A stretch of 64,000 bases of DNA, from positions 268,281-332,280 of the forward strand of contig CAZULC010000001.1 of the NCBI GenBank assembly GCA_964621165.1, in the 5' to 3' direction. The first letter of the stretch is position 1, and every line of letters starts with the position of its first letter. Made by a program: the position numbers and the translations under genes. Below the pieces are notes generated by a model. It was given only the letters and a program-made list of their open reading frames with translations. It searched no databases and was not told the origin of the DNA. Shown in pieces: positions 3,428 to 61,594 of the stretch. The stretch is from an uncultured Ruminococcus sp. GTDB lineage: Bacteria; Bacillota; Clostridia; Oscillospirales; CAG-272.

Positions 3428-3731
3428 GATGGGAGACAAGGGGAACGCGCTTCTTGAAAGAAGCTGTGCAAGAACTTTATTCCTCATTCTCCTTTTGGTT
3501 TAGCTGAGCAGGGAATGCTCACTCCGAACTATTCTGCAGCTGAGTAGGTAGGATACGGTGGTAGTGGGAGCAGTCCTTGAACTGAGGAGTAGTTGAGACG
3601 GCAGTCAGGGACCGCCTGGTCGGTACACTTTTCTCCCCCCTGCCTGCCCTCAAACCCTTCCGATTGCGTAATTTAGCAGTGATAACGTGCAGTCGATAGC
3701 AGTTATATCAGCGCGGTTGTTAGTGCTAAGG
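3428..3731 (+). ncRNA. Family C structured intergenic element, copy a (candidate ncRNA, class unknown)
   Basis: Aligns block by block with 41009-41452 and 54080-54406. Outer stem GGGGAA(3440-3445)/TTCCTC(3480-3485) encloses hairpin GCTTCTT-GAA-AGAAGC. The 3' hairpin is TGATAAC..GTTATATCA. No conserved ORF. Confidence 0.5.
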
Positions 3732-3750
3732 TGTTTGTGCATTTGTGTAC

Positions 3751-6516: not shown

Positions 6517-6602
6517 TTGCGGGAGCTTTGGCTCGGTCGTCGTGGGAGCTGTTAAAGTTTCAGCTGTAGAAAAGCTGAGACTGCCTGCGGGGACTTCCCC
6601 GC
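6517..6602 (+). repeat. Family A repeat unit (complete, 86 nt)
   Basis: TGCGGGAGCTTTGGCTCGGTCGTCGTGGGAGC..CTGCCTGCGGGGACTTCCCCGC. It occupies the position where the 5' half of the GNAT gene should be. Confidence 0.7.
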
Positions 6603-16339: not shown

Positions 16340-16358
16340 TCTTTCTCCTTCCCGCCTA

Positions 16359-16496
16359 TTCTCCTTTAGCGAGAAGAAAAAGACCCAAAAGAGGAACTCC
16401 TTGGAAGTCTTGGGTATTTCGACTTCTGCGGAAGTCGACAAAGGGACTTTGTCCCCTTGACCTAAGCTTTTGTGGCGACAACGTGAAGTTTTAGGG
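16359..16496 (+). repeat. Family B structured repeat, copy B1 (5'-shortened, lacks hairpin H3)
   Basis: CTCCTTTAGCGAGAAG..TCGACTTCTGCGGAAGTCGA..GGGACTTTGTCCC..GTGAAGTTTTAGGG. Confidence 0.65.
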
Positions 16497-17351
16497 CTAC
16501 GGGATGTCGGGGATTACTGTCGGAACCTCATCAAGCTGCCACGGGTTTTTTACCACGGACTTCAACAGTTTCAATGCCGACGCGTAGTAGTATCCATCAC
16601 AGATTCTCTCATCTAATACAAACGTAAAGTCCATATACTGCTTCTTTTTCACCGAACCTTGTGCGTCCATCTCATACACCCGTCTCTTGGAGCCGAAGGA
16701 GAAAAATATGGGGCAGGTGCCGAAGTCATAGAGGTGGTGGTAGATTGGCGGGATGCCGAGGGAGCCCATTGACGTTATGAAGTACGAGCAGTGGAAGGGG
16801 CTTACCTTTGCGATGAACTTAGGCATGACTCCGAAGTAGTCGAGGGTCTTGAAAAACCACACGGCGAACTTGAACATGAGTCCGGGGAGTAGGGTAAACG
16901 CCCGTGCCGTATTGTCGAAGTCCCCGCCGGGGTTAGCTCTATAGGACGTGATTTCATAATCGAGGGCCTTATACACGTCCGCGGTGGTGGCGGTGGGAGG
17001 GAGTGTGATTTTCACGACTGTATCAGGGGACTGGAGGGACATTTCCTTTTTGATGGTGAGTGAGACTTCCACGTTTTTTCTTGTCCAGATTCGCTGACCC
17101 CGTATGAATCTATTTAGTGCGGGGCGCTGTGAAACTACGCGGATGAAGGCTGCTATCATGACGTGCATGATACTGATATTGGGCATACCGTTCTGTTGTT
17201 TTTCGCGGATATATTTTTCGATTTTATCTATTTCGATTGAGTCGGTGATGAAGTTCTGTGAGCCGGTGCGGTTTACCATGATGAAGGGGATGACGGCGGA
17301 CATTGGCGACACGGATTTGACCCGGCGGAATTCTTTTTCTTTTTTGGACAT
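16497..17351 (-). CDS. Acyltransferase with 2-oxoacid dehydrogenase E2 catalytic-domain fold
   Basis: C-terminal LDERICDGYYYA aligns with the DHRxxDG catalytic motif of E2/CAT-type acyltransferases. ATG 17351 (MSKKEKEF) is preferred to the TTG at 17375. Confidence 0.7.
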   Translation of the reverse strand: MSKKEKEFRRVKSVSPMSAVIPFIMVNRTGSQNFITDSIEIDKIEKYIREKQQNGMPNISIMHVMIAAFIRVVSQRPALNRFIRGQRIWTRKNVEVSLTIKKEMSLQSPDTVVKITLPPTATTADVYKALDYEITSYRANPGGDFDNTARAFTLLPGLMFKFAVWFFKTLDYFGVMPKFIAKVSPFHCSYFITSMGSLGIPPIYHHLYDFGTCPIFFSFGSKRRVYEMDAQGSVKKKQYMDFTFVLDERICDGYYYASALKLLKSVVKNPWQLDEVPTVIPDIP

Positions 17352-18467: not shown

Positions 18468-20372
18468 ATGGAAAAATTTGATGTTGCAGTTGTTGGTGCG
18501 GGTCACGCGGGAGTCGAGGCCGCTCTTGCCTGTGCGCGCATTGGGTTAAAGACTGCTTTGTTTACGCTTTCCCTTGACGCGGTGGCGAACATGCCCTGCA
18601 ATCCTTCCATTGGTGGAACGGGAAAGGGGCATTTGGTTTACGAAATTGACGCTCTTGGCGGTGAGATGGGTTATGCCGCGGATTTAGCTACCACTCAGTC
18701 CCGCATGCTGAACACCTCGAAAGGTGCGGCTGTGCAGTCGAAGCGGGTACAGGCTGACCGTCGGAAGTACACGGCTATCATGAAGTCGGTTATCGAGAAC
18801 ACCCCAGGGTTATACCTGATTCAGGGGGAAGTAGTCGACATTTTGGTTGAGCCGTCGGGGGAATCCGGTCGGATGAAGGTTGTAGGGGTTACAGCTGAGC
18901 CGTCGGGGGAGTACTCCTGCAAAGCGGCTGTTATTTCCACGGGAACCTATCTCGGCGGGCGGACGTTTGTGGGGGATGTGGTTCGTGAATCGGGGCCTGA
19001 CTCCACTTTACCGGCGAAGTCGCTCACGGGGAAGCTGGAGAAGTTAGGTTTCCGTTTGATGCGGTTCAAGACCGGGACTCCGCCGAGGATCAACAGGCGG
19101 TCCATTGATTTTGGCGAGCTTGACGTACAGGAGGGGGACGGGTACATTGTGCCGTTTTCTTCCCGCACGGACGAGGCGGCTTTGAACCGAATAAAGCAGG
19201 ACGTCTGTCATGTGGCGTACACGAATGAAGAGACTCACAAAATCATCCGGGAGAACATCAGCCGCTCACCCTTATACTCGGGGATGATACACGGGGTAGG
19301 TCCGCGGTACTGTCCGTCGATTGAGGACAAGGTGATACGTTTTGCGGACAAGGAGCGTCACCAGTTATTTGTGGAGCCGATGGGGGAGAATTGCAGTGAG
19401 ATATATCTACAGGGGTTTTCCTCATCCTTACCGGCGGACGTACAGGAGAAGATGCTGCGGACGCTCAAGGGGTTCGGACATGCGGAGATCATGCGGTACG
19501 CCTATGCGATAGAGTACGACTGCATTGACCCGCTTGAGTTATACGGCACTCTTGAGACGAAGCGTGTTGCGGGGTTATTTGGCGCGGGTCAGTTCAACGG
19601 GACATCCGGATACGAGGAAGCGGCGGCTCAGGGGGTATTGGCGGGGATCAACGCGTCGTTATACTGTCGGGGCATGGAGATGATTACATTACCGCGGCAC
19701 TCGTCGTATTTAGGGACGTTAGTGGACGATTTAGTGACGAAAGGCACGGCTGAGCCATACAGGATTATGACGGGGCGGAGCGAGTACCGGATTTTACTGC
19801 GTCAGGACAACGCGGAGGCGCGGCTTTCGAAGTACGGGCATTATGCGGGGTTATTATCGGATGAGCGTTTTTTTGCTGCTGAGGAGCGGACGAGGTTAGT
19901 TGAGGCTGAGGTCGAGCGTTTGAAGCGGGTGAGCATTGGGTCGACCAGCGGGGTGAACGAATTACTCCGTGAGAGGGGGACCAGTGAGATAAAGAGTGGG
20001 GCGACTTTAGCTGAATTAATACGGCGGCCGCAGTTAGACTATGAGATGTTGGCGCCATATGACGAAGGCAGGCCGGAGCTTGAGCGTGGGTTGAGGTTTC
20101 GGGTATGGTGTGAAGTGAAGTACGAGGGGTACATCAGACACGAGTTGAGTGAGGCGGCGCGGTTTGAGGCTGCCGAGGGGATGGTTTTACCGGCTGGTGT
20201 GGATTATACCGAGATAAAGGGGTTACGTCTTGAGGCTGTGCAGAAGCTTGATTTAGTGAAGCCGCGGACGATTGGGCAGGCGTCGAGGATTTCCGGTGTG
20301 AATCCGGCGGACGTAGCGGTGCTTATGATATGGCTTCGCGAGCGTCGGTGCGGTAATGCGGACAAGGAATAG
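18468..20372 (+). CDS. mnmG: tRNA uridine 5-carboxymethylaminomethyl modification enzyme MnmG (GidA)
   Basis: FAD fold VVGAGHAGVEAALA, NPSIGGTGKGHLVYEIDALGG, GPRYCPSIEDK and the C-terminal GidA-associated domain. Confidence 0.95.
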   Translation: MEKFDVAVVGAGHAGVEAALACARIGLKTALFTLSLDAVANMPCNPSIGGTGKGHLVYEIDALGGEMGYAADLATTQSRMLNTSKGAAVQSKRVQADRRKYTAIMKSVIENTPGLYLIQGEVVDILVEPSGESGRMKVVGVTAEPSGEYSCKAAVISTGTYLGGRTFVGDVVRESGPDSTLPAKSLTGKLEKLGFRLMRFKTGTPPRINRRSIDFGELDVQEGDGYIVPFSSRTDEAALNRIKQDVCHVAYTNEETHKIIRENISRSPLYSGMIHGVGPRYCPSIEDKVIRFADKERHQLFVEPMGENCSEIYLQGFSSSLPADVQEKMLRTLKGFGHAEIMRYAYAIEYDCIDPLELYGTLETKRVAGLFGAGQFNGTSGYEEAAAQGVLAGINASLYCRGMEMITLPRHSSYLGTLVDDLVTKGTAEPYRIMTGRSEYRILLRQDNAEARLSKYGHYAGLLSDERFFAAEERTRLVEAEVERLKRVSIGSTSGVNELLRERGTSEIKSGATLAELIRRPQLDYEMLAPYDEGRPELERGLRFRVWCEVKYEGYIRHELSEAARFEAAEGMVLPAGVDYTEIKGLRLEAVQKLDLVKPRTIGQASRISGVNPADVAVLMIWLRERRCGNADKE

Positions 20373-20399
20373 GAGTGGCGGTTGGCTTCCTTATAATTT

Positions 20400-20620
20400 G
20401 GGTGAAGTGGAGCGGGTGCGGGAATTTTGTTCTTCTTTTTCTCCTTTGGCGAGGAGGAAAAAGAAGCAAAAAGAGGAACTTTTTATTGAGTCTTGGGGTG
20501 TTTCGACTTCTGCGGAAGTCGACAAAGGGACTTTGTCCCCTTGACCCTAACAGACTTTTGAAAAAGTTTGATCAAAACTTGTGGCAACAACGTTTAGTTT
20601 GAAGTTTTAGAGATCCTTCT
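20400..20620 (+). repeat. Family B structured repeat, copy B2
   Basis: H0 CTCCTTTGGCGAGGAG, H1 TCGACTTCTGCGGAAGTCGA, H2 GGGACTTTGTCCC, H3 ACTTTTGAAAAAGT. It ends 30 nt before the cimA ATG. Confidence 0.7.
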
Positions 20621-20649
20621 ATATATTAACAAGGTGAAGTTTAACAATT

Positions 20650-22245: not shown

Positions 22246-22269
22246 AATTAGGGCGGAGTTTGGGGTTGT

Positions 22270-22600
22270 CTGAATTTGGCGTTTTGGACTAATGCCCTTC
22301 TATAAACCGAATAATATTGTGTGGCAGAGTTTAAATTCGGACTATTGTCCCTCTGTTGGCTGTGCGATATTGTGCGGTGGAATTTATTTTTAGGCTATTG
22401 ACCTGTTGTCTCTGCAGTGGGTGAGTTTGAAATTGGACTATTGTCGCTCTATAAGCAGAATGATATTGTGCGGTTGAGCTTAAAATTGGACTAATGTCCC
22501 ATCGGCAAACGTGCTATATTGTGCGGTAGAATTTGATTTTGGACTATTGTTCTGCTGTCTCGGCTATGCGCGAGTTTGAAATTGGCCTAATGCCATACCG
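22270..22600 (+). repeat. Family E tandem array: seven GGACnnnnGTCC-type palindromes in a 149-bp higher-order repeat
   Basis: GGACTA(A/T)TG(T/C)CC-like sites start at 22286, 22339, 22393, 22435, 22488, 22541 and 22584. Spacings are 53, 54, 42, 53, 53 and 43 nt. Each site is preceded by ATATTGTGCGGTnGAATTTGAAATT. Confidence 0.7.
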
Positions 22601-22760
22601 CTGACCTTGCTGTTTTTTGGTATAGAAAACCTTCCATATTATATAAAATTATATTGCCGCGGGGAGTTGGCTTTACTGCGGCTCGTGACTTGAAAATTAT
22701 TCATCTAAATAAAATTTTGTGCGGGAGAGTTGACTTTGCTTCCGCGGATTGGAGTTTGAT

Positions 22761-25682: not shown

Positions 25683-25711
25683 TTGATTTTTCGCGGTGCA
25701 TGTAGTATAAT
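25683..25711 (+). promoter_or_regulatory. Sigma-A type promoter upstream of Family B3 and the M23 gene
   Basis: -35 TTGATT, 17-nt spacer, -10 TATAAT. It would give a leader of about 330 nt containing all of copy B3. Confidence 0.6.
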
Positions 25712-25799: not shown

Positions 25800-26038
25800 T
25801 TATTTTTCTTTTATGGATTGGATGACGGGGAGATGGTGCGGATTGTTCTTTGTTCTTTTCTCCTTTATCGAGGAGCAAAGAACCAAAAGAGGAACTTCTT
25901 GGAAGTATTGGGGTGTTTCGACTTCTGCGGAAGTCGACAATGGGACTTTGTCCACTTGATCCTAACAAGCCTTTGAAAAGGCTTGACCTAAACTTTTGGG
26001 CTGACTACGTTTTGTTGAAATTTTTAGTGATCCTTCTT
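25800..26038 (+). repeat. Family B structured repeat, copy B3 (full length)
   Basis: H0 CTCCTTTATCGAGGAG, H1 TCGACTTCTGCGGAAGTCGA (25918-25937), H2 GGGACTTTGTCCA, H3 AAGCCTTTGAAAAGGCTT. It ends 14 nt before ATG 26052. Confidence 0.7.
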
Positions 26039-26051
26039 ATTGGGGAATATT

Positions 26052-27843: not shown

Positions 27844-30800
27844 ATGATTCATTTTATAGTCGGGAGAAGCGGATACGGGAAGAGCGGATTCATTGTTCGC
27901 GAAATTGAAAAAATGGTGGAGTCCCGCGTTCGTGGAAAAAGCGGGGTCTTGCTAGTTCCGGAGCAGGAGACGGTGGTCTGGGAGTCGAAGCTGGCGCGGA
28001 TTCTGCCAGCTCGGGCGAACTTATGTTTGGAAGTGACGAACTTCACCCGACTGGCCAACTCGGTTTTCCGGCAGTACGGTGGGCTTGCGGATTCGGTCAT
28101 CGACGACGGCGCGCGGATTTTGATTCTATGGCGTGCCATGCTGTCGGTCTGGGACGATTTGCGGTTTTACAATCATCTATCGGGGCGTGAGGACAGGAAC
28201 ATTCCGGTTCTGCTTTCGGCAATTGACGAGCTGAAACAGAGCGGAATTACCGTTAAAAAAGCGTCGGAAGCCGCAGATCTCATGCTGGCGGATGAGCAAA
28301 ATGGCGAAAATGTTGGTCAAAATGTACAAGGAAATCGACTTTCGGACCGGCTTTCGGACGTGGTTTTGGTGTATTCCGCGTACAATACCCTGCTTCACGA
28401 GGAGTACATTGACAAGGCGGATCTCGAAACCCGGCTGGCTGAGTCTCTGCGGATTCACCCATTCTTCAAAGGTAAAACGGTCTACATTGATTCGTTTCTG
28501 TCGTTCACATCGGGTCAGGTCAAGATAATCCGCGAAATTTTCCGGCAGGCGGACGAGGTTTTCGTCACGTTCATGGCTCCGGTGGAGAATGGGCAGGTTC
28601 CGATTGAAGATGAAGATGGCGGTGCGGATTTGACGTTTTTTGAAACTGAGCAGTGCCTGCGCGACATGAAGATACTCGCGTCCCGAGTGGGAGTGGAGTA
28701 TGATGTGGTTCCGCTGGTCGAAAATTTCCGTCATAAAGGCAAACGCGGGCTTGGTTTGGCAGAAAAATACTTGTTTGACTATACGTATTCCGGTGATGGT
28801 GCACAAAAAGAAGATGATAAAAATGAGTCAGAGTTGTCGGTATTTGACAGAGAAGTGAGCATAATCAGCTGCGGAGACAAATACGGCGAGGGCGAGGCTT
28901 GTGCCATGGCGGCTGCGGGTCTGCTGAAGCGGGGGTATGATTTTTGCGATATCGCAGTAGCCGCGGGCGACGTCAGCAGGTATGATGGGATAGTGGATTC
29001 ATCTTTGCGGCGGCATGGATTCCCAGTGGATATGTCGAAGTCCACAAATGCAACGTTGAATCAAACGATAAAATTTATACAATGTGCTCTAGCGGTAGGT
29101 GCGGGAGGCTGGAGACGCGAAGATATAATCAGGTTAGTGAAAACCGGCCTGACAAATCTTTCAGGAAACGCCGAACTTCCGGATTTTGCGGCGGAATATT
29201 TCGAAAGCTACGTGAACACATGGGAAATCAGCGGCCGGAAAAGCTACACTGGCAGCGGCTGGTCCATGAATCCGGCGGGGTACAAGATTGGAATTAGTGA
29301 ATACGGTAAAAAAATGCTTACAATAGTGAATCAGGCAAAGGAGACGCTGGTTCCGCCGCTGAATGAGCTTCTGTCGGTGTTCGATGATGGTGCGGCTGAA
29401 ATTCGTCGAATTGCCGAAAAAATTGTTGAATATGCCGAAGCGGTAAATCTGCGAAAAGGCTTGAATCGGCTTGCGTCCGAGCAGAAAAAAGCGGGACTCA
29501 TGGCGGATGGGCTGAAAACCGAGTCCGGATGGCAGGTCTTGTGCGAAATACTCGACAAAATGGTGAAATTCCTCGGCGATTCACGGTGCGACTGTCAGCG
29601 ATTCTTGGGCCTATTCTCGAAAGTTGCGGCTGAAACCGACGTGGGCAGCATCCCTTCCGGAATCAACGAAATCATCATGGGCAATGCTCAGGGAATCCGG
29701 TTCGATGGGCGAAAATGTATAATTATACTTGGCTCAAACGATGGAGAGTTCCCGGGAAGCGGCGGCGCGGTCAGGTCGTATTTTGGCAAAAAAGAGCGTG
29801 AAATTTTGGCTGAATACGGCTTGGTTCTCGATGAAGGAATAGGGGATCTGTCGGCGGTTCGCGAGTATTGCATGTATTATCGTGCGGTGGCTGCGGCTTC
29901 GGACAAGCTGATTGTGCTGTGTGACAGCGATCGGGATGAGTCAATCTCGGAAGGCGCGCGTCGGCTCAGGCAAATCTGCGGGGTCAATGTAGTCAGGATG
30001 GACGAACTCGACGAATCGGACGCGGTGTATGATAAGTCAAGTCTCGAGCGTTATCTGGTCCGGCACGGATGCGAAGATGTCAAGGAAATTGCAGAATCAA
30101 TATGCAAAACCGGCGAAAATGAACCGAAAATAATAGAAAATCAACATCGGGCCGAAGAATATACCACGGGTGAGCAGATAAGCCTGTTCTTGGAGGATGA
30201 AGAAGTACTATATTTGTCACAAACGAAAATTGAGACATATGTCAAGTGTCCGTTCGACTATGGGTGCAAGTATGTCCTCGGAATCAAACCAAAAGCTGTT
30301 GGCCGAATCACGCCGCCGGACATCGGTTCGCTCATGCACCGGATGCTGCAGGAATTCTTTGAGAAAAATCCGCCGGAAGAATACGAAATGCTTATGAATA
30401 ATTCGGAAGAGCTTGACAAGCGTATAGATCGAATTTTAGATAATTGCAAATCGGAATTAAAGGAAAATGTTGGCAATCTCGAGAACCGGATTGAATATTT
30501 ATTCGTACGAATGAGAAAGCACCTGACGCTGTTTGTACGCAAAGCGATTGTAGAACTGCGGTCAGGCGAGTTCAAGCCGGTTTACTTCGAGAAGAAAATC
30601 GGAAGAGGTGGGATTCCATCAATTGTTGTAGAGGCAGAGAATGGATGTTCGATCGTGGTGGAAGGAATAGCGGACAGAGTTGATTTTGCGGAAGTCGACG
30701 GCCAAGAATTCGTTCAAATTGTGGATTACAAAACTGGAAGCAAGAAATTCTCGCTGGAAAAAGCGCTCCAAGGCGTGGGAATACAGCTGTTGGTGTATCT

Positions 30801-31185
30801 TTCGTCGATTGTAATGTCGAACAAAAAATATCGTCCCGGACGTGCGCTGTATTTTTCGACGAACATGACTGGCGTGAAGGTAGAGCCTGGCGAGAGTGAG
30901 GATGAAGTATTGTCGAAGGCGGAAGAAGCGATTGCGGTCAGCGGCCTTGTAAATTCACAATTTGTTGAAAACGACAAAGATAATAAGAAATACGATATAA
31001 TAGACGAAAATGAATTTGAAGCGGTGTTCAACGACATGAATGAGTTGATAAGAATAATCGGAAGCAAAATAATGCAAAAGCAGTTTGGGGCATCACCGCG
31101 CGAATTTGACAGAGTTCTGCCGTGCAATTATTGCGAGAATGCTTACATTTGCAGAAGAAAACGTGGAGGCGAGGCCAATGGGTGA
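27844..31185 (+). CDS. addB: ATP-dependent helicase/deoxyribonuclease subunit B
   Basis: N-terminal GRSGYGKSG P-loop. C-terminal RecB-type nuclease with a Cys cluster (CPFDYGCKY .. LPCNYCENAYIC). It overlaps addA by 8 nt. Confidence 0.92.
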   Translation: MIHFIVGRSGYGKSGFIVREIEKMVESRVRGKSGVLLVPEQETVVWESKLARILPARANLCLEVTNFTRLANSVFRQYGGLADSVIDDGARILILWRAMLSVWDDLRFYNHLSGREDRNIPVLLSAIDELKQSGITVKKASEAADLMLADEQNGENVGQNVQGNRLSDRLSDVVLVYSAYNTLLHEEYIDKADLETRLAESLRIHPFFKGKTVYIDSFLSFTSGQVKIIREIFRQADEVFVTFMAPVENGQVPIEDEDGGADLTFFETEQCLRDMKILASRVGVEYDVVPLVENFRHKGKRGLGLAEKYLFDYTYSGDGAQKEDDKNESELSVFDREVSIISCGDKYGEGEACAMAAAGLLKRGYDFCDIAVAAGDVSRYDGIVDSSLRRHGFPVDMSKSTNATLNQTIKFIQCALAVGAGGWRREDIIRLVKTGLTNLSGNAELPDFAAEYFESYVNTWEISGRKSYTGSGWSMNPAGYKIGISEYGKKMLTIVNQAKETLVPPLNELLSVFDDGAAEIRRIAEKIVEYAEAVNLRKGLNRLASEQKKAGLMADGLKTESGWQVLCEILDKMVKFLGDSRCDCQRFLGLFSKVAAETDVGSIPSGINEIIMGNAQGIRFDGRKCIIILGSNDGEFPGSGGAVRSYFGKKEREILAEYGLVLDEGIGDLSAVREYCMYYRAVAAASDKLIVLCDSDRDESISEGARRLRQICGVNVVRMDELDESDAVYDKSSLERYLVRHGCEDVKEIAESICKTGENEPKIIENQHRAEEYTTGEQISLFLEDEEVLYLSQTKIETYVKCPFDYGCKYVLGIKPKAVGRITPPDIGSLMHRMLQEFFEKNPPEEYEMLMNNSEELDKRIDRILDNCKSELKENVGNLENRIEYLFVRMRKHLTLFVRKAIVELRSGEFKPVYFEKKIGRGGIPSIVVEAENGCSIVVEGIADRVDFAEVDGQEFVQIVDYKTGSKKFSLEKALQGVGIQLLVYLSSIVMSNKKYRPGRALYFSTNMTGVKVEPGESEDEVLSKAEEAIAVSGLVNSQFVENDKDNKKYDIIDENEFEAVFNDMNELIRIIGSKIMQKQFGASPREFDRVLPCNYCENAYICRRKRGGEANG

Positions 31186-34100
31186 AGTAAAATACACGGA
31201 GTCACAGCTCAGGGCGATAAATTTTGATGGAAATAATTTACTTTTATCGGCAGCGGCTGGAAGCGGAAAAACAGCGACTTTGGCTGCGCGAATTGTGGCT
31301 TTGATAAGTGAAGGGAAATGCGATATTGACGAGATGTTGATCGTCACGTTCACCAGAGCCGCTGCAGCTGAAATGAAAAGCAGGATCAGAAAGAAGTTGA
31401 TTGAGCTAAGAAATGAAAAAATATACAAAGCGCATTCATCTGTGAAGTGGCTGAATCTGCAGCTGTCGAAGCTTGAAAACGCAGAAATCTGCACGATAGA
31501 TTCGTTCCTTTACAAAAACATGCGACAGTACTTCCCGCTGGCGGAATTTTCCGGTGATTCGAGAATCGCTTCCGAGAGAGAAATTGACGAACTCAAAGCA
31601 AATGTCATGAAAGAAGTCGTCGATGAGATATTTGATGAACCCGAAAATCACAAAATATCTCACGAAAAATGGCAAAGTTTATGCAATATGATCAATCAGA
31701 CGCGGGATACGTCAAAGATAGACAGTGTACTTTTGGATATCGCGGATGAGCTGGAATCAAAAGATGTTGATGTGGAACAACTTTTGAACAAATACGGTAA
31801 GGACGGAATCGGGGATGCAGAAATTGTTGACTGGCTCAAGGAATATTTACAAATATTCATAGAACACTATAAATATGCATACAAAAAATCGCTCGAAATG
31901 TTATCAACTGACGAAGACGCGATGAAAAAATTGGGAAAAGCATGTAAATCCGATTTGGCATTCATCATGAATTTGGAAATAATATGCAGTAGCGCCAATT
32001 CTGAAATGGAAATAATAGGAAAAGAGATTGCATCCTTTTCATTCGAACGACTCGGATCTGTGAAAGAGAAGACCGAAGAGACTGAATTGTTCAAAGCGCT
32101 GCGAGAAAATTTCAAAAAAGACTTAAATGATTTACGAGAAAAATTCTTTGAATTCAGCAAGGCTGAAATTGAGAGCGGAAAACAGGAATCGCAGGAAAAT
32201 ATTCTGACAATTTTACAAGTGCTAAATGAATATTATGCAAAAATAAGATATGAAAAAATCGCAAAGGGTTTTATCTCTTACCACGACCTAGAGATTATAT
32301 CATATAGAATACTTATAGAAAATAGGCAAATTGCACAAAACGTCGGACAGAAGTACAAATACATTTTCATCGACGAATATCAGGACACGAACCGGATTCA
32401 GGATGAAATTTTCTGCATGATTAGCGACAATTCCTCGCGCTTTTTGGTAGGTGACATCAAACAATCAATCTACAGGTTCCGCGGCGCCGAACCAATGATT
32501 TTCAACGGGTACCGGCGCGACTGGTCCGCTGACGGAAATGTGATTTTTATGAGCGAAAACTTCAGGTGCTCCCGCGAGATTGTTCGCACGGTAAACCGGA
32601 TTTCAAGCGAAATCATGCCGTACAGCGACGTCGACTATTGCGAAGACGACAACCTGATATATGCAAAGAGCGAAGAAAAAGAGATCGTGACGCAATCAGA
32701 AGTAGCGCTGATTGAGAAAAAGCGTAAAAAGAAAACTGATGAATCAGCTGAAATTGAGAATCCTGAAGCAGAATATGCATCAATATACATAAAACATGCA
32801 ATCGGCAGGTTTGATGAAAAGTGCGGCAAAATCATCGAACCGGACGATATTGCTATTATTATGCGCAGTCCGGCGTCCCATGGTATAGAATTTTGCGATG
32901 CTCTGGCAAGGCGAGGGATTAAGAGCAGACTAAAAAAAGAAGCTCCACTCGTGGAATTTGCAGGAGTGAAGCTGATTATGTGTGCTCTTGAAGCGATAAA
33001 CAATCCGCTCGATGACGTGTGCCTTGTCGGCTTGGCGCAATCGGAGTTATTTGGCTTTTCAATGGATGATTTGATATGTATAAAAAAAATGTCAGATGGT
33101 TTGCCGTACTACTCCGGAATTGTCGAATCTCAACGCTTGCATAATAAAAATGAACTGACAAAGAAATGTGAAAGATTGATTAATTGGGTGCAGGATTATC
33201 GGACAAAGGCTTCTGTTATGAATGTCAGTCTACTTGTTGATTTGATTATCAATGATGATAATATTTTGTTGTTTGACGAGATTAAGTCGGATCCAAATGA
33301 GAGTGTGGCGCTCAATAGATTGTGTGATATGGCACGTGAATATTCAGTAAATGCTGCGGATGGTGGTAGAATTGCAGGATTTTTGGAAATGGCTTATGAT
33401 GAAATTGAAGACAGCATATCTACCGATGAAGATGATGGTGAAAAAAACGCCGTTTCGATAATTAGTACACATTCTTCAAAAGGACTTGAATATCCAATCG
33501 TGATTTTGTGCGAAACGTCAAGGGCGAGATCGAAACAGGATGAGATGAAGCCGTTCATAATTGACAAAGATTTGGGAATTGGCCTGAAAATTGCCGACAG
33601 CACAGGGTTTGGAATAAGAGATACACTTGCAAGGCGGATTCTGGCGAAGAAAAATGATTTGACCAACGCATCTGAAGAAATGCGAATGCTCTATGTTGCA
33701 ATGACCCGTGCGAAATGCAAACTTTTGATAACTGCGGTCGTAAGCGACATCGACAAAGCTCTCGCTCAGGCACATGTTAACAAAATATATAAAAGCAAAT
33801 ATTCTGTACTTGAATGCGGAAGCTACATTGAGTGGATTCTGATGTCACTTGACGGAGAAGATTACAGTGAGTACTTGAAGATAAACGAGATTCGAGACCT
33901 GAATAATTATTTAGCTGATGAGAAAAAGTCGGAAAATGGCGAAAAGTTTGATGATCGGAATGTGACAAATAATTGTATTGATGAAGAAAAAATCTCGCTT
34001 GTCGAAGAACATTCTTCGATTGATGAAATAATTAATAAAATACCTTCAAAAATCGCTGCCGCTAAGGTAAGTCCGGATTTTCTCGACAAGAACTGTGCGG

Positions 34101-38096: not shown

Positions 38097-38777
38097 TGCG
38101 GGAGCTTAAGTTTGTCGTCGAAGGTTGGCTTTAAATCAAAACTGAACGAACGATGTGCTTGCCCGTGGGGGCTTCCCCGCAATCGTAGGTTTTCGGGCGG
38201 TTTTGGGGCTGATGAAGTGCCGTGCTTGCCGCTACCGACCCCACTGCGGGAGCTTAAGTTTGTCATCGAGGGTTGGCTTTAAATCAAAACTGAACGAACG
38301 ATGTGCTTGCCCGTGGGGGCTTCCCCGCAATCGTAGGTTTTCGGGCGGTTTTGGCTGATGAAGTGCCGTGCTTGCCTGTCGGTGCTACCGACCCCACTGC
38401 GGGAGCTTTAGTTTGTCATCGAGGGTTGGCTTTAAATCAAAACTGAACGAACGACGTGCTTGCCCGTGGGGGCTTCCCCACAATCGTAGGTTTTCGGGCG
38501 GTTTTGGGACTGATGAAGTGCCGTGCTTGCCGCTACCGAACCCACTGCGGGAGCTTTAGTTTGTCATCGAGGGTTGGCTTTAAATCAAAACTGAACGAAC
38601 GACGTGCTTGCCCGTGGGGGCTTCCCCACAATCGTAGGTTTTCGGGCGGTTTTGGGACTGATGAAGTGCCGTGCTTGCCGCTACCGAACCCACTGCGGGA
38701 GCTTTAGTTTGTCATCGAGGGTTGGCTTTAAATCAAAACTGAACGAACGACGTGCTTGCCCGTGGGGGCTTCCCCAC
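38097..38777 (+). repeat. Tandem array of Family A composite units (4.6 x 148-153 bp)
   Basis: Units start at 38097, 38245, 38398, 38546 and 38694 (TGCGGGAGCTT..). Units are near-identical. The last unit is cut at 38777 and supplies the last 14 codons of the GH2 gene on the other strand. Confidence 0.85.
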
Positions 38778-40961
38778 CTTGGCGGCTTCTGCGGCCTCTT
38801 TTGACTCTATGTACATGTTGTATTCGTTGACTATTGTAGTGCCGCAGGCGCATTTGAAGGTCAGCTTCACTTGGAACACCGTCTTCGGCTTCGTTCCTGC
38901 GGGGAACTTGAACTTTATTACGCCGCCTTTGGCGTTTTTGTTCTCCTCTGCCACAACATGGTGTACGCCAGTGTAATATTCAACTCCGTCAAGCGTAATT
39001 TCGGAGATAATGTCGCCTTCCGGTGCGTGAGGGCCGTCGTTGAGCAGCCATGTCTCGAACTCGAACTCCTCCTCCGGAAACCACGCAAATTTCCTGAACT
39101 TGGCTGAGGGAACAACATCGCGGAGGGAGTCTTTTACCGCAAAATACCCGCCCTTTTTCACGTTGGGGTATGCGATGAGGGAGTTGTTCGCGGCGCACTT
39201 CCACGGCTCGCACCAGCACCAGTTGATTGCCATTGCGCAGAGGGGCTTCTGACGGCGGGCTTCCTCGAAAATTGCCTTATATCCGATGCCTTGGAGCCTG
39301 TTTGACGTCTCGACGATTGACTCAATTGTGGAAATATCACCAAATCTTTCCAGCGTTGGAAGACTCAGCCACGGATTCATGCCGCCCCATGCATAGAACG
39401 CGTGATGTGCCTGCCAAACTCCGCCAGGCTTGGGTGGGAACAGCTCGTCCTCGGGGATAAATGAGCGGAGGTACTCTACACTCGGCGGAGTTGCGGGAAT
39501 TCCAAACTCGGTGTAGGCTGTGGCGCGGGTCCGACCGAAGAGTGCGAACTGGTCCTCACCGGTTTCAAGATCGAGGAAGGTATAGCCGCCGTGCTTCATT
39601 CCGTCGATTGGCGAGGTGGGGTTGAAGGGGACTTCGGGGCAAAGCTCGAGGGTGAGTGCGTTGAGGAGTCGGAGCGCGAGGTGCTGATCCGTCATGCCCG
39701 ACCAGCTATTGAACAGCTCGTTTCCGCCGCACCAGATTGCGATGGACGGATGTGAGCGGAGCTTCAGAATTATTGCGGTTGCCTCCTGCTTGAGAATGGA
39801 TAAATATTCAGGGGAGTCGTAGTAGTTATTGCAGGACAGGGGGAACTCGAACCAGAGCATGATTCCGTATTTATCGCAGAGGCTGTAAAAAATTTCCTTC
39901 TGGCATCCGGTACCGCCCCAGCAGCGGAATACGTTCATGTTGGCTTCATACGCGAACCTGATGAGTTCCTCGTATTCTTTATCTGTCACAATGCCGGGGA
40001 AGATTTCCTGATTGACGTAGTTGGAGCCTTTTGCGAAAACGTTGACTCCGTTGAGTGTAATCTGAGCCGGTGGCCATGCGCGGGACTTAGGGAAGCCTTG
40101 TGGGTCGATGAGTCTGCCGCAGTTTTGGGTGAGCTGGACTCTACGGAAGCCGATTTTCTTATCAACTGAGTTTTCTTCATTATAAACGGTGACTGTATAA
40201 AGGTTGGGTTCGCCGTAGCCTCTACACCACCAGAGCTTGGGATTTTCGACGTACGCGGTGAATTTACCGTCAATGGTTGTTCCTTCGGCAACGACATCTC
40301 CTGCTGTGTCGGTGATTTTGACCTTACAGGGGAGTGTTGAGTCGACGGTTGTAGTGACTTCGGCGTGTGTGAAGTCCGGGGAAAGGGTATAGCGGGATTC
40401 TGTTCTGCCGATATAGTATTGGTTACGTGATTCTACGAATGTGTCGTCCCATATACCGGAGGGGATAGCTCTGGGGTGCCAGTCCCAGTAGTAGGAGACG
40501 GGGGGTTTACAGGACTGGGAGGCTTGGTTACGGTCCATTGGCATACCCTCGAGCATGGGGTGGGGGTGGATTTTGATTTTGAGGTTATCGCCGGGCTTAG
40601 TGTTACGACCGAAGAGTGAGTTTGCGAAGTCGTCGAGGCAGATATCGACCCGTGAGAACATACCCTCGTGGTGGAAGATCTCGCGGTCATTGAGGAGTAC
40701 GGTCCAGATATAGTCGATCCCCTCGGTAGCGAACCAGATTTTCTCGCCGGCCTTACGCTGGAAGTCGAGAGTTGTGGTATAATACCAAGTAAAAGGTTCC
40801 AGCTGCGTCATCTTTTCGTGCTGCATACCGTAGTTTATATCCGAGATGAATTCTGGGTGTGCCTTAATATAGTCATTCTGCACGTTTCCGGGAACCTGAG
40901 CGGGAAACGGCGGGCAGTCGACATCCGGCGAGTAAGCGGTAAAATTTTGGTAAAACTTCAT
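38733..40961 (-). CDS. Glycoside hydrolase family 2 (beta-mannosidase / exo-glucosaminidase-like)
   Basis: GH2 architecture with a sugar-binding N-terminal region, a TIM barrel with FRCWGG and CGGNELFN. AAGGAG SD. The C-terminal GKPPRASTSFVQF is encoded by the antisense of a Family A unit. Confidence 0.85.
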   Translation of the reverse strand: MKFYQNFTAYSPDVDCPPFPAQVPGNVQNDYIKAHPEFISDINYGMQHEKMTQLEPFTWYYTTTLDFQRKAGEKIWFATEGIDYIWTVLLNDREIFHHEGMFSRVDICLDDFANSLFGRNTKPGDNLKIKIHPHPMLEGMPMDRNQASQSCKPPVSYYWDWHPRAIPSGIWDDTFVESRNQYYIGRTESRYTLSPDFTHAEVTTTVDSTLPCKVKITDTAGDVVAEGTTIDGKFTAYVENPKLWWCRGYGEPNLYTVTVYNEENSVDKKIGFRRVQLTQNCGRLIDPQGFPKSRAWPPAQITLNGVNVFAKGSNYVNQEIFPGIVTDKEYEELIRFAYEANMNVFRCWGGTGCQKEIFYSLCDKYGIMLWFEFPLSCNNYYDSPEYLSILKQEATAIILKLRSHPSIAIWCGGNELFNSWSGMTDQHLALRLLNALTLELCPEVPFNPTSPIDGMKHGGYTFLDLETGEDQFALFGRTRATAYTEFGIPATPPSVEYLRSFIPEDELFPPKPGGVWQAHHAFYAWGGMNPWLSLPTLERFGDISTIESIVETSNRLQGIGYKAIFEEARRQKPLCAMAINWCWCEPWKCAANNSLIAYPNVKKGGYFAVKDSLRDVVPSAKFRKFAWFPEEEFEFETWLLNDGPHAPEGDIISEITLDGVEYYTGVHHVVAEENKNAKGGVIKFKFPAGTKPKTVFQVKLTFKCACGTTIVNEYNMYIESKEAAEAAKVGKPPRASTSFVQF

Positions 40962-41008: not shown

Positions 41009-41452
41009 TGAAGGTGAACGAGGGGGACGTGCTTCTTTAAAGAAGCTGTGCAGGAACTTTATTCCTCATTCTGTTTTATGTGAAGTTTAGCAGGACATGT
41101 TCACTCCGAGCTAATCTGTAGTTTAGTAAGGAGGATGCGGAGAAAATATAGAATACCAAGGGATCAGGAGGGATATAATACGGCAGTCAGGAACAGCCTT
41201 ATTGGAGATAGCTTGCTATCTCCGGTACACAGTTCCCGCCCCCTGTCTGCCCACGCCGGATTCAGATTGCGGGATGGGGCAGTGATAACGTGCAGTTTAC
41301 ATCAGTTATATCAGCGCGAGCGTTGGTGCTGATGGTTGAGAAGATCATGAAATGTTGCGATTGCTGGATTAGCAGTGATAACGTTTGGTTCTACAGCAGT
41401 TATATCAGCGCGAGCGTTGGTGTTGAGGGTGGAGAAAATCATGACGGTATAT
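41009..41452 (+). ncRNA. Family C structured intergenic element, copy b (3' module tandemly duplicated)
   Basis: Same block order as copies a and c. Hairpin GGAGATAGC-TT-GCTATCTCC is present. The 3' module GCAGTGATAACG..GTTATATCAGCGCGAGCGTTGGTG occurs twice (41279 and 41372, 93-nt period). Confidence 0.5.
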
Positions 41453-43501: not shown

Positions 43502-43676
43502 TTTCCCGGTAGCTTGGGTTTGTCGTCGAGGGATTGCTGTAAATTTAAACTGCAAAAATGACGTGTCTGCCTGTCGTTGCTATTGACTGCGGGAGCTAAA
43601 GTTTGTAGTCGAGGGATCGCTTCAAATTCAGACTTCAAAAACGACGAGATAGCCCGCGGGGACTTCCCCGCCCCCA
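43502..43676 (+). repeat. Two tandem Family A units (first with a degenerate hairpin)
   Basis: ..GGTAGCTTGGGTTTGTCGTCGAGGGATTGC.. then TGCGGGAGCTAAAGTTTGTAGTCGAGGGATCGC..GACGAGATAGCCCGCGGGGACTTCCCCGC. Confidence 0.65.
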
Positions 43677-43854
43677 CTATATTTTAGCATAGTTGGGGGG
43701 AGATTGCAACAGATTTTGGGAATTATGTTTACAGAAATCTTTTTATTTTTACAGTTTTTGTTTTATGACGATAAAAGTTTTGTTTATGATAGGTGCGTAA
43801 ATAATAAAGATTTGACTTTTTCCGTCATTTTCGCAAAAAGTTTTGATTTTGCTA

Positions 43855-44794: not shown

Positions 44795-44821
44795 GGATCC
44801 GTGGGGTGGAATATAGTTTAT

Positions 44822-45125
44822 TGGAATTGGATTTAGAGAATTCAGGGATTTCGTTGTTATTTTCTCATTTATCGATGAGCAAAGGACCAAAAGAGGAACT
44901 CCTTGGAAGTATTGGGTGTTTCGAATTCTTCGGAATTCGACAATGGGACCCGCTTCCCTTGACCCTAACAAACTTTTGAAAAGGCTTGATCTAAACTTTA
45001 TTGCTACAACGTGAAGTTGAGTAGTGAAGTTTGCCCGCGGGGGCTTCCCCGCTTCCCTTGACCCTAACAAGTCTTTGAAAAGGCTTGATCTAAACTTTTC
45101 GGCAACAAAGTGAAGTTGAAATTTA
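44822..45125 (+). repeat. Family B structured repeat, copy B4 (chimeric, 3' module duplicated around a Family A hairpin)
   Basis: H0 CTCATTTATCGATGAG and H1 TCGAATTCTTCGGAATTCGA. The 3' module CTTGACCCTAACAA..AAAGGCTTGATCTAAACTT occurs twice, separated by CCCGCGGGGGCTTCCCCGC (45034-45052). Confidence 0.7.
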
Positions 45126-45141
45126 TAGGAGGTATATCAAA

Positions 45142-45939
45142 ATGATTAAACTTGGTGTGAATTCGGTTTTGTTCAAGGCGTTTCCTTACCGGGTGGTGGC
45201 TGAACAGATTGCGAAAATCGGGTACGACGGGGTGGAGCTTTCCGCCATACAGGGAATGTGCGAGCATCTCTGTCTCGACCGGTGGCGAGAACAGGCGGAG
45301 GAATTGAAGTCAATCCGGGAGGAATTTAATCTTCCCTACCTTGCCATGGAGGCGGCAACCCTTGACCGGGAGCGGTTACTCAAAGCCTACGAAGCGGCGG
45401 CTGAGATTGGCATTCCCGTGGTGAATATCGGTCCCGGCGGACGTTCAGGCGACGAGGATTCCCTCAAGGCCCAGCTGGAGCTTATTTCCCGTCTGGCTGA
45501 GGACGCGGAATCCTTTGGCGTGAACCTCTGCGTGAAGGCACATGTAGGCGCGGCGGTGTACTCGACTCCCACGACCCTTGCGATGATGGAGTCGGTTAAG
45601 TCCCCTGCGTTCGGCGTCGACATGGACCCGTCGCACATTCACAGAGCCGGAGAAAATCCCGCTTTGGCTTTACCGGCGGTTCTCTCGAAGATGAAGCACA
45701 TCCACATACGGGACTGCAAGGGCGAAGGGCCGTCCCCGGGTGCGCCGGTTGATCAGGCCTGCGGAAAGGGCGACATTGACCTGTGGGGGTACTTCAAAGC
45801 AATGGTTGAGCAGAACTACGACGGTCCGGTTGACCTTGAGGTTATAGGTCCGGAGCAGAGCCTTGAGTCGGCGGTGCAGATTGCGGCGGAAAGCTACGGA
45901 TACATGAACGCGGTGCTGAAAAAGCTCGGCGCGAGATAA
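45142..45939 (+). CDS. Sugar phosphate isomerase/epimerase (xylose isomerase-like TIM barrel)
   Basis: AGGAGG SD. MIKLGVNSVLF.., GYDGVELS and HIHIRDCKG are typical of the family. Confidence 0.8.
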   Translation: MIKLGVNSVLFKAFPYRVVAEQIAKIGYDGVELSAIQGMCEHLCLDRWREQAEELKSIREEFNLPYLAMEAATLDRERLLKAYEAAAEIGIPVVNIGPGGRSGDEDSLKAQLELISRLAEDAESFGVNLCVKAHVGAAVYSTPTTLAMMESVKSPAFGVDMDPSHIHRAGENPALALPAVLSKMKHIHIRDCKGEGPSPGAPVDQACGKGDIDLWGYFKAMVEQNYDGPVDLEVIGPEQSLESAVQIAAESYGYMNAVLKKLGAR

Positions 45940-49754: not shown

Positions 49755-49985
49755 GCTTTCTCCTTTATGGATTTATGTACAAGGGGAGAATAGTGCGGGA
49801 TTTCGTTGTTCTTTTCTCCTTTATCGAGGAGCAAAGAACCAAAAGAGGAACTCCAGAAAGAGCTTGCTCTTTCAGAAGTCAATGGGGTGTTTCGAATTCT
49901 GCGGAATTCGACAATGGGACTATGTCACCTTGACCTAAACTTTTGGGCTGACAATGTTTAGTTTAAATTTATTGAGATACTTCTA
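49755..49985 (+). repeat. Family B structured repeat, copy B5 (lacks hairpin H3)
   Basis: H0 CTCCTTTATCGAGGAG, H1 TCGAATTCTGCGGAATTCGA, H2 GGGACTATGTCAC. It ends 28 nt before ATG 50013. Confidence 0.7.
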
Positions 49986-54079: not shown

Positions 54080-54406
54080 GATGGGAAACGAGGGGAGACG
54101 CGCTTCTTGAAAGAAGCTGTGCAAGAACTTTACTCCTCATTCTTTATCACGTTCAGTTGAGTAGGGGAACGGTCACTTCGTACAATTCTGCAGCTTAGCA
54201 GGGAGGAGTCCGGATAAGGTGGAGCGATCCAGGGGATGAGGACACAGTGGCTGACAGCAGTCAGGGACCGCCTTGTTGGAGATAGATTGCTATCTCCGGT
54301 ACACGTTCCCGACCCCTGCCTGCCCACGCCGGATTCAGATTGCGGGATGAAGCAGTGATAACGTTTTATTTACAGCAGTTATATCAGCGCGAGCGGAGTG
54401 CTTGCC
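54080..54406 (+). ncRNA. Family C structured intergenic element, copy c
   Basis: Outer stem GGGGAG(54092-54097)/CTCCTC(54133-54138) encloses GCTTCTT-GAA-AGAAGC. Hairpin GGAGATAG-ATTG-CTATCTCC is present. The 3' hairpin is TGATAAC..GTTATATCA. Confidence 0.5.
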
Positions 54407-57681: not shown

Positions 57682-57786
57682 CATTATTGCACAAGTCCCA
57701 GTTGTATGGCTCATTATTGCACAAGTCCCAGTTGTACGGCTCATTATTGCACAAGTCCCAGTTGTACGGCTCATTATTGCACAAGC
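57682..57786. repeat. 30-bp perfect tandem repeat, 3.5 copies
   Basis: CATTATTGCACAAGTCCCAGTTGTA(T/C)GGCT is repeated from 57682. The only variation is one T/C. Confidence 0.9.
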
Positions 57787-61031: not shown

Positions 61032-61138
61032 TGAACTTTGGGTTCTTGGCTGTGCTGCTTGGCGTGTGCATGATTTTGGTATAAGTTATAAATTAAGCCT
61101 TGCTTGAATAAATTTTATTTGAGTGGGGCTTATTCTAT

Positions 61139-61462
61139 TGCGGGAGCTTGAGCTTGCCGTCGAGAGAGCTTTTCCGCTTTTGGCTGAAGAAATGACGAGA
61201 ACACCCGCGGGGGTTTCCCCGCTTCCTTCATTATTATATATAAGAATTTTTGCGGGAGCTTGAGCTTGCCGTCGAGAGAGCTTTTCCGCTTTCGGCTGAA
61301 TAAATGACGAGAACACCCGCGGGGGTTTCCCCGCTTCTTTCATTATTATATATAAGTATTTTTGCGGGAGCTTGAGCTTGTCGTCGAGGGATCTTTTCCG
61401 CTTTTGGCTGAAGAAATGACGAGAACACCCGCGGGGGTTTCCCCGCTTCTTATTATATATAG
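61139..61462 (+). repeat. Tandem array of Family A units (3 x 112 bp)
   Basis: TGCGGGAGCTTGAGCTTG(C/T)CGTCGAG..GACGAGAACACCCGCGGGGGTTTCCCCGC plus a 28-nt AT-rich spacer. Units start at 61139, 61251 and 61363. Confidence 0.85.
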
Positions 61463-61594
61463 GGATAAAATGGATGTGTTTGAAATATTTAATCTAATTT
61501 AAGAACGCGGAATCACATTTTGTTCAAAAAAAACTCTTGCTTTTTTTCTTATTTTATTATATGATATATACGTTGTAGATTGCTGTCGAATCGG

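Follow-up and report, generated by a model that had tools for sequence, protein, structure and literature searches.

The window analysed here, a stretch of 64,000 nucleotides (nt) of contig CAZULC010000001.1 from an uncultured Ruminococcus sp., contains five copies, B1 to B5, of a repeat designated family B, which consists of a string of hairpins and in most copies stands shortly ahead of a start codon. The question raised by this locus is whether such an element is the leader RNA of the genes that follow it or a repeat inserted between genes. In a first-pass annotation of the window, family B had been taken as a portable structured leader or intercistronic RNA module, always on the plus strand and usually docked just upstream of a start codon. 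The observations described below point to another answer: family B is probably a miniature repeat of intergenic DNA, non-coding and either mobile or once so, of the same kind as the MITEs (miniature inverted-repeat transposable elements), BOX and bcr1, built around a core of four to five hairpins. The family is uncatalogued and widespread in rumen and gut Clostridia, and is new as a family, ordinary in kind. Most likely it is not a dedicated gene leader.

Identification of five copies in the window

A search of the window with a 25-nt pattern of hairpin H1, TTTCGAMTTCTKCGGAAKTCGACAA, gave matches at 16417, 20501, 25916, 44919 and 49890, all on the plus strand, none being expected from shuffled sequences, and the linker CAAAAGAGGAACT matched at the same five sites. 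With a covariance model (R1) built on 14 copies, the five copies scored 97-154 bits with E-values from 4e-20 to 8e-33, copy B3 giving a hit at 25847-25999 with 154 bits. One extra hit of the model, partial, fell at 45027-45101 inside B4; no other full copy was detected by the model in the window, and hits on the minus strand were seen only at E >= 0.07. The patterns and the covariance model thus bear out the five homologous plus strand copies at the places given by the first-pass annotation. The double changes it quoted can be read directly in the sequence: H0 is CTCAT/ATGAG in B4, H1 is GAATTC/GAATTC in B4 and B5 with a TTCG loop in B4, and H3 is GCCTTT/AAAGGC in B3 and ACTTTT/AAAAGT in B2. 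Its description of four hairpins holds insofar as all the named hairpins, H0 to H3, are present, but H0 is longer (12 bp), a fifth hairpin, H0b, exists, and H3 is not universal. The copies show a BOX-like modularity, H3 being absent (B1 and B5), single (B2 and B3) or double (B4), H0b being expanded in B5, and the tail being duplicated in B4.

Covariation and folding of the hairpins

From an unfitted MAFFT alignment of 14 copies, RNAalifold predicted H0, H1, H2 and H3 with a total of 27 pairs, 11 of them compensatory. In an alignment of 95 copies, among which 90 distinct sequences were counted, 98.1% of the stem cells paired as against 86.5% after shuffling, double changes were observed in 15 of the 27 pairs, and the covariation score was 0.312 as against about 0.04 when the partners were slid by 1-3 columns. 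For H1, six of its eight pairs carried compensatory double changes and 98.9% of the cells were paired. The pairing, the double changes and the score of this alignment together support the covariation of the hairpins; a structure so supported is what is expected of a cis-regulatory leader. The window copies by themselves give a modest covariation signal, 93.1% of the stem cells pairing as against 89.5% in shuffles, and it is strong only with the relatives added.

The five window copies differ at 26% of the unpaired core positions and at 13% of the paired ones, the stems changing at about half the rate of the unpaired positions. The base of the H0 stem covaries between genomes (GTGC/GCAC, GTAC/GTAC and CTTC/GAAG), the H2 stem is longer in relatives (AAGGGAC/GTCCCTT or TTAGGAC/GTCCTAA), and the loops of H0 and H1 are conserved. 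These comparisons are to be read with the caveat that both scans by which the copies were collected fixed parts of H0, the linker or H1; since the linker was included in both search patterns, its invariance in the wider set is largely a matter of ascertainment.

The antisense strand folds as well as the sense strand (-62.1 and -60.6 kcal/mol, respectively). The G-U pairs in the upstream stem of B3 had been taken to fit plus strand RNA, and this stem does need three of them, but the argument is weak, because the independent events are few and no asymmetry between sense and antisense exists in the minimum free energy. G-U pairs outnumber A-C mismatches by 20:4 in cells, which reduces to only 11:4 in position types, and assignment of the strand by such counts was set aside as suggestive, the independent positions being few. 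A closing helix formed by the flanks was also rejected, the RNAduplex energies (-32.4 as against -30.1 kcal/mol for shuffled flanks) giving no discrimination.

Distribution of family B among Clostridia

By scanning representative genomes, nine copies or loci were identified in six metagenome-assembled genomes (MAGs) of rumen or gut Clostridia, belonging to Ruminococcus, Oscillospiraceae and Eubacteriales. With a pattern leaving H1 to H3 free, at least 120 metagenome contigs were found to carry the element, mostly from rumen samples; the figures on metagenome copies, sites and flanks here and below refer to the matches listed, and their totals are lower bounds. The covariance model gave at least 145 matches in the collected loci, for which 0.9 Mb was fetched. 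Among the matches listed, 27 of 147 hits were partial and most of these were cut at contig ends, as expected because repeats break assemblies. The copies range from 36% to 55% in GC content across the MAGs and yet the core is conserved. In size, the window copies are about 150-320 nt and those of subfamily 2 (see below) 223-247 nt. Five copies lie within 64 kb of the window, and only three of 120 copies overlap a called gene. Family B therefore has the general properties of a MITE, being small (below about 400 bp), free of a transposase gene, and present in many dispersed, mostly intergenic copies.

A cmscan against Rfam, proposed in the first-pass annotation as a check, gave no hits at the gathering threshold of Rfam 15 for the window and three loci, and at a permissive E-value only chance matches of miRNA and snoRNA type fell on the element; family B is thus not an already described Rfam family. 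Neither was any match obtained in collections of phages, plasmids and viral contigs. In the literature library searched, no paper was found on a MITE of this kind from Clostridia or the rumen, and a text search with the sequence returned unrelated primers only. On one contig that also carries the element (L116), a cobalamin riboswitch (RF00174, 44.8 bits) lies at 25-275. Another contig (L046) has two copies in opposite orientation, 1425-1575 on the minus and 2138-2283 on the plus strand, about 560 nt apart in a composite-like arrangement.

Presence or absence of the element differed among related sequences. L074 is 97% identical to L087 and does not have the core found at L087:4692-4836. Copy B5 is absent from eight relatives in which the oxidoreductase is at least 90% identical; their spacer is not alignable with that of the window, and since a 102-aa gene is located there in the relatives, this spacer was rejected as a clean empty site for B5. 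In four related genomes (L017, L052, L061 and L102), the element occupies the same site in the nusA-infB spacer in antisense orientation, and these copies carry different variants of H0b, H1, H2 and H3 though their flanks are 90-97% identical, a difference that suggests possible conversion between copies, or replacement of the copy.

Orientation and gene context

Genes were called in all the loci by a simple codon-bias caller, which on three loci with official calls gave the right strand for most genes, the errors being mainly small or partial genes. After removal of orthologous sites, a total of 96 independent sites outside the window were left for the census. Among the 75 sites with a downstream gene, this gene was co-oriented with the element at 26 and opposed at 49; the upstream gene was co-oriented at 47 and opposed at 30 of the 96 sites, and convergent contexts (16) were found twice as often as divergent ones (8). 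These counts indicate that the element tends to adjoin the 3' ends of genes on both of its sides. A preference for gene 3' ends is usual for tolerated repeats and is the opposite of what is seen with leaders. The orientation was related neither to the local GC skew (43 vs 30) nor to the majority gene strand (45 vs 51). Within the window, of which about 75% is coded on the plus strand, five of five copies on the plus strand gives p = 0.06 under random orientation and is not significant. Copies are also found antisense inside core operons, for instance nusA-infB.

The neighbouring genes are unrelated, including those for CimA, an M23 peptidase, a TIM barrel protein and an oxidoreductase as well as nusA-infB, gyrB, ABC transporters and solute-binding proteins. 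No recurrent protein such as a transposase, a reverse transcriptase or TnpB was found among 653 flanking proteins, which were clustered but not all annotated. Neither a consistent sense orientation (26 co-oriented of 75) nor a coherent class of genes, both expected of a leader, was observed.

It follows from this census that the plus strand leader docked at start codons is not supported outside the window, orientation being mixed and downstream co-orientation depleted. The first-pass annotation had itself named random orientation and position relative to genes, in a genome-wide census, as the outcome that would tell against it, and such was the outcome of this wider census at the 96 sites. What is supported of the proposed module is that it is portable, structured and non-coding; a dedicated leader it most likely is not. 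Its judgement against a conventional ligand riboswitch is supported. An outward promoter in the 3' tail was considered and rejected: a -35-like TTGAAA or TTGAAG is present, and a matching -10 exists only in B2.

Terminal repeats and an IS630-family element

Comparison of the flanks showed one and the same core between termini that are mutually complementary and that differ from subfamily to subfamily. Subfamily 2 was represented by eight copies in eight unrelated flanks, with sharp ends TATAGCAATCCGCTCAAATACTCGCAC ... GTGCAGCTAATTCTGAGTATTGCTATA. These ends form terminal inverted repeats (TIRs) of about 27 nt, of which 11 nt are perfect and about 16 nt imperfect, ending in TA. At the extremes, all eight copies begin with TA-TAGC... 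and seven of the eight end with ...GCTA-TA, that on L029 ending with ...GCTAAA; this TA could belong to the repeat itself.

The left end of subfamily 2 was also found on two contigs (L035 and L029) far from any core, both of which carry the element as well. An extended -10 promoter comes after it at these places, and then an open reading frame (ORF) with a helix-turn-helix of transposase type begins, the contig ending soon after. Homology search with the 37-aa fragment of this ORF gave only truncated proteins, and the complete element was found through the contig of P0020: L138:149-1176 is a complete insertion sequence of about 1.03 kb with matching TIRs, TATAGCAATCC. Its transposase belongs to the IS630 family (PF13358; NF033545 at 132 and 165 bits, with a cut-off of 100). 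Two frameshifts interrupt the transposase frame, which could represent a pseudogene, an assembly error or programmed frameshifting. By alignment, both ends of the small subfamily-2 element are homologous to the ends of the L138 insertion sequence. In subfamily 2, therefore, the small element and an autonomous insertion sequence of the same host have matching termini, as is characteristic of a MITE. Elements of the IS630 family duplicate a TA target, with which the TA at both extremes agrees.

For the window copies, the 3' tail (...ACAACGTTTAGTTTGAAGTTTTAGAGATCCTTCTATA in B2) can be aligned to the right terminal repeat of IS630 type and ends at the equivalent TA, and the right ends given earlier for the copies agree with this alignment. 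No inverted copy of the right end was found in the window. As a terminus of the element, GGTTAATGGGGG was rejected, since it has only two occurrences, consistent with chance. An IS630-like element with an end of the TATAGAAGGATC type is what the MITE model predicts for the source genome.

The 5' end of the commonest subfamily is a GGGGCTGTCGCATT...AAATGCGACAGCCCC hairpin. The same hairpin was also observed alone, between A and T tracts in the manner of a bidirectional intrinsic terminator, near L004 1309, L037 6007 and L077 8891 (minus strand).

Nature of family B

As a mechanism, an IS630-family transposase supplied in trans would bind the terminal repeats and move the element by cut-and-paste into intergenic TA sites. 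The window copies would then be old derivatives, probably immobile, that vary by loss or duplication of the modules H3, H0b and tail; they are read as old because of the divergence of about 26% at unpaired core positions and the lack of a recognisable left repeat. Upon read-through transcription in either direction, the core would fold into independent stem-loops within an untranslated region (UTR) or an intercistronic RNA, and in B2 to B5 a folded block of about 230 nt would sit 12-30 nt before the start codon. Should a copy influence stability, processing or translation, this would be incidental or a case of local exaptation, and not the reason for which the family exists.

Several observations weigh against this repeat interpretation. 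The same core is found inside shells with quite different termini; MITEs usually have conserved termini and free interiors, and family B is the reverse. The stems remain paired despite the 26% divergence at unpaired positions, which points to selection on the fold itself, and such selection is not obviously needed by selfish DNA. Possible reasons for the pairing are a requirement of the element itself, conversion from copy to copy, or selection on the transcribed fold, conversion being considered because the orthologous nusA-infB insertions carry different stem variants. The window copies are without a recognisable left inverted repeat, their 5' parts (the extra hairpin plus GTGCGG) give no alignment with it, and the window holds no IS630 gene. 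The TA duplication is deduced rather than read, because no clean pair of filled and empty sites was found; the difference between L087 and L074 replaces 12 nt, and the right end probably remains. The census was taken from other genomes and subfamilies, and in the source genome four of five copies are in sense orientation just upstream of genes. Finally, the diversity of the family is under-sampled, as a match to parts of H0, the linker or H1 was demanded in both of the scans.

These points may be set against what the other explanations offer. A cis-acting structured leader or intercistronic module, in which the sense hairpins stabilise, process or tune the translation of the downstream mRNA, would account for the four sense copies, B2 to B5, that end 12-30 nt before start codons, for the location of B3 downstream of a good promoter, for the overlap of the diverged end of B4 with a Shine-Dalgarno sequence and for the covarying stems; the G-U pairs needed by the upstream stem of B3 and the 20:4 ratio of G-U to A-C cells point in the same direction. 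Such a role is, however, unlikely, given the depletion of co-oriented downstream genes outside the window (26 of 75), the antisense copies inside operons such as nusA-infB, the lack of a functional theme among downstream genes, the equal folding of sense and antisense, and the p value of 0.06 for five of five copies in a window biased to plus strand genes. Likewise unlikely is the view that the core has a function of its own as a structured RNA, for example as a ribozyme, a protein-binding scaffold or a guide-like RNA, and that different transposon shells carry it as cargo, the repeats being dispersed copies of a non-coding RNA gene. This would explain why the core is conserved over MAGs whose copies range from 36% to 55% GC when the termini differ wholly between subfamilies, why the stems evolve at about half the rate of the unpaired positions and stay paired, and why the loops of H0 and H1 are conserved, and the absence of any matching known family leaves room for a new class. 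Against it stand the lack of a consistent internal promoter or terminator, as judged by promoter search and reading of the flanks, the absence of orientation preference and of strand asymmetry in folding energy, the absence of a partner protein gene recurring beside the element, and the free loss and duplication of H3 and H0b, which a tertiary fold would rarely tolerate; much of the linker invariance, moreover, is due to the way in which the copies were collected.

A related view, unlikely but deserving of mention, is that the core is an RNA cassette spread by transposon shells (a portable stabiliser or insulator, a site of processing, or a ribozyme or protein-binding RNA of a new type), which would be selected for its fold in many lineages of Clostridia and recruited here as 5' UTR blocks before metabolic genes. 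Movement as single-stranded DNA by an HUH/Y1 enzyme that recognises folded DNA, in the manner of REP/BIME with RAYT or of the IS200/IS605-derived PATEs, is very improbable. Hairpin covariation would then need no transcription, and all five window copies do lie on the G-rich strand, but elsewhere the orientation is unrelated to GC skew (43 vs 30), one subfamily has classical inverted termini matching a DDE (IS630) element, no conserved tetranucleotide target exists, and the 0.9 Mb of flanking sequence, of which the 653 proteins were clustered but not all annotated, showed no Y1 transposase. Neither the replication-strand orientation nor the Y1 partner expected of REP/RAYT or IS200/IS605 systems was therefore found. 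A mobile or formerly mobile intergenic repeat remains the preferred interpretation of family B.

Features of the copies and of the window

The coordinates of the five copies, of the parts of B3 and of its upstream promoter are summarized in Table 1. For B3, the right end follows from the homologous sequence of the other copies and of the right terminal repeat of IS630 type. The GTGCGG motif located 3' of H-1 in B3 is common to B2 and B5, and by RNAfold of the copies B5 has a stem equivalent to H-1, CTTTCTCCTT/AAGGGGAGAA; H-1 does not belong to the core shared with the TIR-bounded subfamily.

Table 1. Location of family B copies in the window, of the structural parts of B3 and of the upstream promoter
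Feature	Position	Strand	Remarks
Copy B1	16348..16496	+	110 bits; 5'-truncated, without H3; 3' end adjoins the stop codon of gene 16497-17351, which is on the minus strand
Copy B2	20392..20623	+	149 bits; between mnmG (18468-20372) and the cimA-like gene (ATG 20650); right end TAGAGATCCTTCTATA
Promoter, sigma-70-like	25683..25711	+	TTGATT-17-TATAAT; about 100 nt upstream of B3, outside the repeat
Copy B3	25812..26039	+	From about TATGG to terminal ...GATCCTTCTTA; left boundary uncertain by about 10 nt
H-1 of B3	25807..25833	+	Upstream hairpin, TCTTTT ... GGGGAGA; three G-U pairs needed; read directly
H0 of B3	25852..25883	+	12-bp stem GTTCTTTTCTCC / GGAGCAAAGAAC, loop TTTATCGA
Linker of B3	25884..25896	+	Purine-rich, CAAAAGAGGAACT; last three bases are the start of H0b
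H0b of B3	25894..25906	+	Small and variable, ACTTC-TTG-GAAGT; about 35 nt in B5, where it is expanded
H1 of B3	25918..25937	+	TCGACTTC-TGCG-GAAGTCGA; eight pairs
H2 of B3	25942..25954	+	GGGAC-TTT-GTCC(A)
H3 of B3	25967..25984	+	AAGCCTTT-GA-AAAGGCTT; optional module
3' tail of B3	25985..26039	+	Ends ...TAGTGATCCTTCTTA; homologous to the IS630-type right terminal repeat (alignments A9, A10)
Copy B4	44819..45135	+	H3 + tail module duplicated: 44958-44991 and 45057-45090
Copy B5	49766..49985	+	97 bits; H0b expanded, H3 absent; upstream of the Gfo/Idh/MocA gene (ATG 50013)

The consensus promoter reported upstream of B3 was found as described, and would put B3 in the 5' UTR of the M23 gene. The assignments of the neighbouring genes were likewise upheld by Pfam, which gave HMGL and LeuA_dimer for the cimA-like gene, Peptidase_M23, a xylose-isomerase-like TIM barrel and GFO_IDH_MocA. 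In B4, the diverged right end runs into the Shine-Dalgarno sequence (GGAGG) of the gene starting at 45142, and a GC hairpin of another repeat, Family A, is located at about 45033-45052, between its two H3 and tail modules, indicating that the repeat families are mosaic or nested.

Family A consists of tandem arrays of 75-148-nt units at 38097-38803, 43507-43698, 61138-61473 and 6536-6602, each unit ending in the GC hairpin GCCCGCGGGGGCTTCCCCGC. Homology of the Family A units to the tail of family B was considered and rejected, only the GC hairpin inside B4 being shared. Another tandem array, of about five units of about 50 nt, lies at 22260-22640 upstream of the gene at 22749; it carries a ATATTGTGCGGT motif, which is like the GTGCGG upstream of the family B cores, and ends in TAGAAAACCTTCCATA, which is weakly like the family B right end (13/16 matches). 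From this sequence likeness, the array may be a core-less relative of family B. A third dispersed family has three copies, at 3436-3747, 41018-41444 and 54093-54395, of up to about 300-430 nt and with 73-90% identity (repeat families D7, D9, D11, D13 and D19). A tandem repeat with about 3.5 copies of a 30-nt unit, CATTATTGCACAAGTCCCAGTTGTAYGGCT, lies at 57682-57785 (D14). The stretch at 30000-34000 has a low GC content (0.40-0.43 as against about 0.51 elsewhere), a positive AT skew and two ORFs of 1113 and 1218 aa, and may be acquired DNA.

Comparison with known repeats and significance

The properties concerned, namely secondary structure, co-transcription, compensatory changes and mobilisation by insertion sequences, are each known from published analogues (PMC3049150, PMC3184786). 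RUP, the repeat unit of pneumococcus, is a MITE of 107 bp, with IS630-Spn1 as the presumed source of its mobilisation in trans (PMC3049150). Both RUP and family B are small non-coding repeats of Firmicutes with intergenic location and a transcript that would be highly base-paired, and RUP has, as subfamily 2 of family B does, TA ends and TIRs like those of an IS630-family element in the same host (PMC3049150). Family B is, however, two to three times longer than RUP and has a conserved multi-hairpin interior, not only conserved termini; its core is combined with several unrelated termini, the window copies are without a left repeat, and no similarity in sequence exists between the two.

BOX of Streptococcus is composed of boxA, then boxB repeated n times, then boxC, and its partner transposase, ISSpn2, is only proposed (PMC3049150). 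It is similar to family B in its modular nature, with optional or tandemly duplicated internal modules folding independently in RNA, and in being intergenic, transcribed along with adjacent genes (as family B would be on read-through), and found in clusters with, or nested in, repeats of other families (PMC3049150). The modules themselves differ, and the likeness is one of description, probably not of sequence, those of family B being short hairpins with strong covariation across genera. The bcr1 repeat of the Bacillus cereus group, about 155 bp in length, is transcribed and keeps its secondary structure by compensatory changes (PMC3184786), and is, like family B, a mobile-element-like repeat of Firmicutes, the distribution of bcr1 itself being not conserved between strains (PMC3184786); bcr1 differs in having 5-bp direct repeats, a two-stem cruciform and a distribution limited to one species group, whereas family B has four to five hairpins, occurs in several lineages of Clostridia and is linked to IS630 in one subfamily. 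The Correia (CREE/NEMIS) and ERIC elements have TA-flanked inverted termini of about 26 nt, as seen in subfamily 2, and share with family B the intergenic location beside genes, and the stem-loops formed in their transcripts may undergo processing or provide promoters (PMC3049150, PMC3184786). They belong to Proteobacteria, however, and have one long terminal stem in place of the string of independent covarying hairpins of family B, and no promoter or IHF site is on record for family B.

The identification of family B adds an abundant uncatalogued repeat family to the uncultured Clostridia of the rumen and gut, in which small mobile elements are almost unstudied, and explains a class of contig breaks in rumen assemblies. 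The covariance model is now available for annotation of the family. Family B also serves as a warning that RNA discovery based on covariation will flag such elements as candidate regulatory RNAs. What is unusual in family B is that the structured interior is conserved and the transposon termini are swapped. If the core indeed acts as RNA, family B would be a natural example of MITEs spreading an RNA module of regulatory or structural type.

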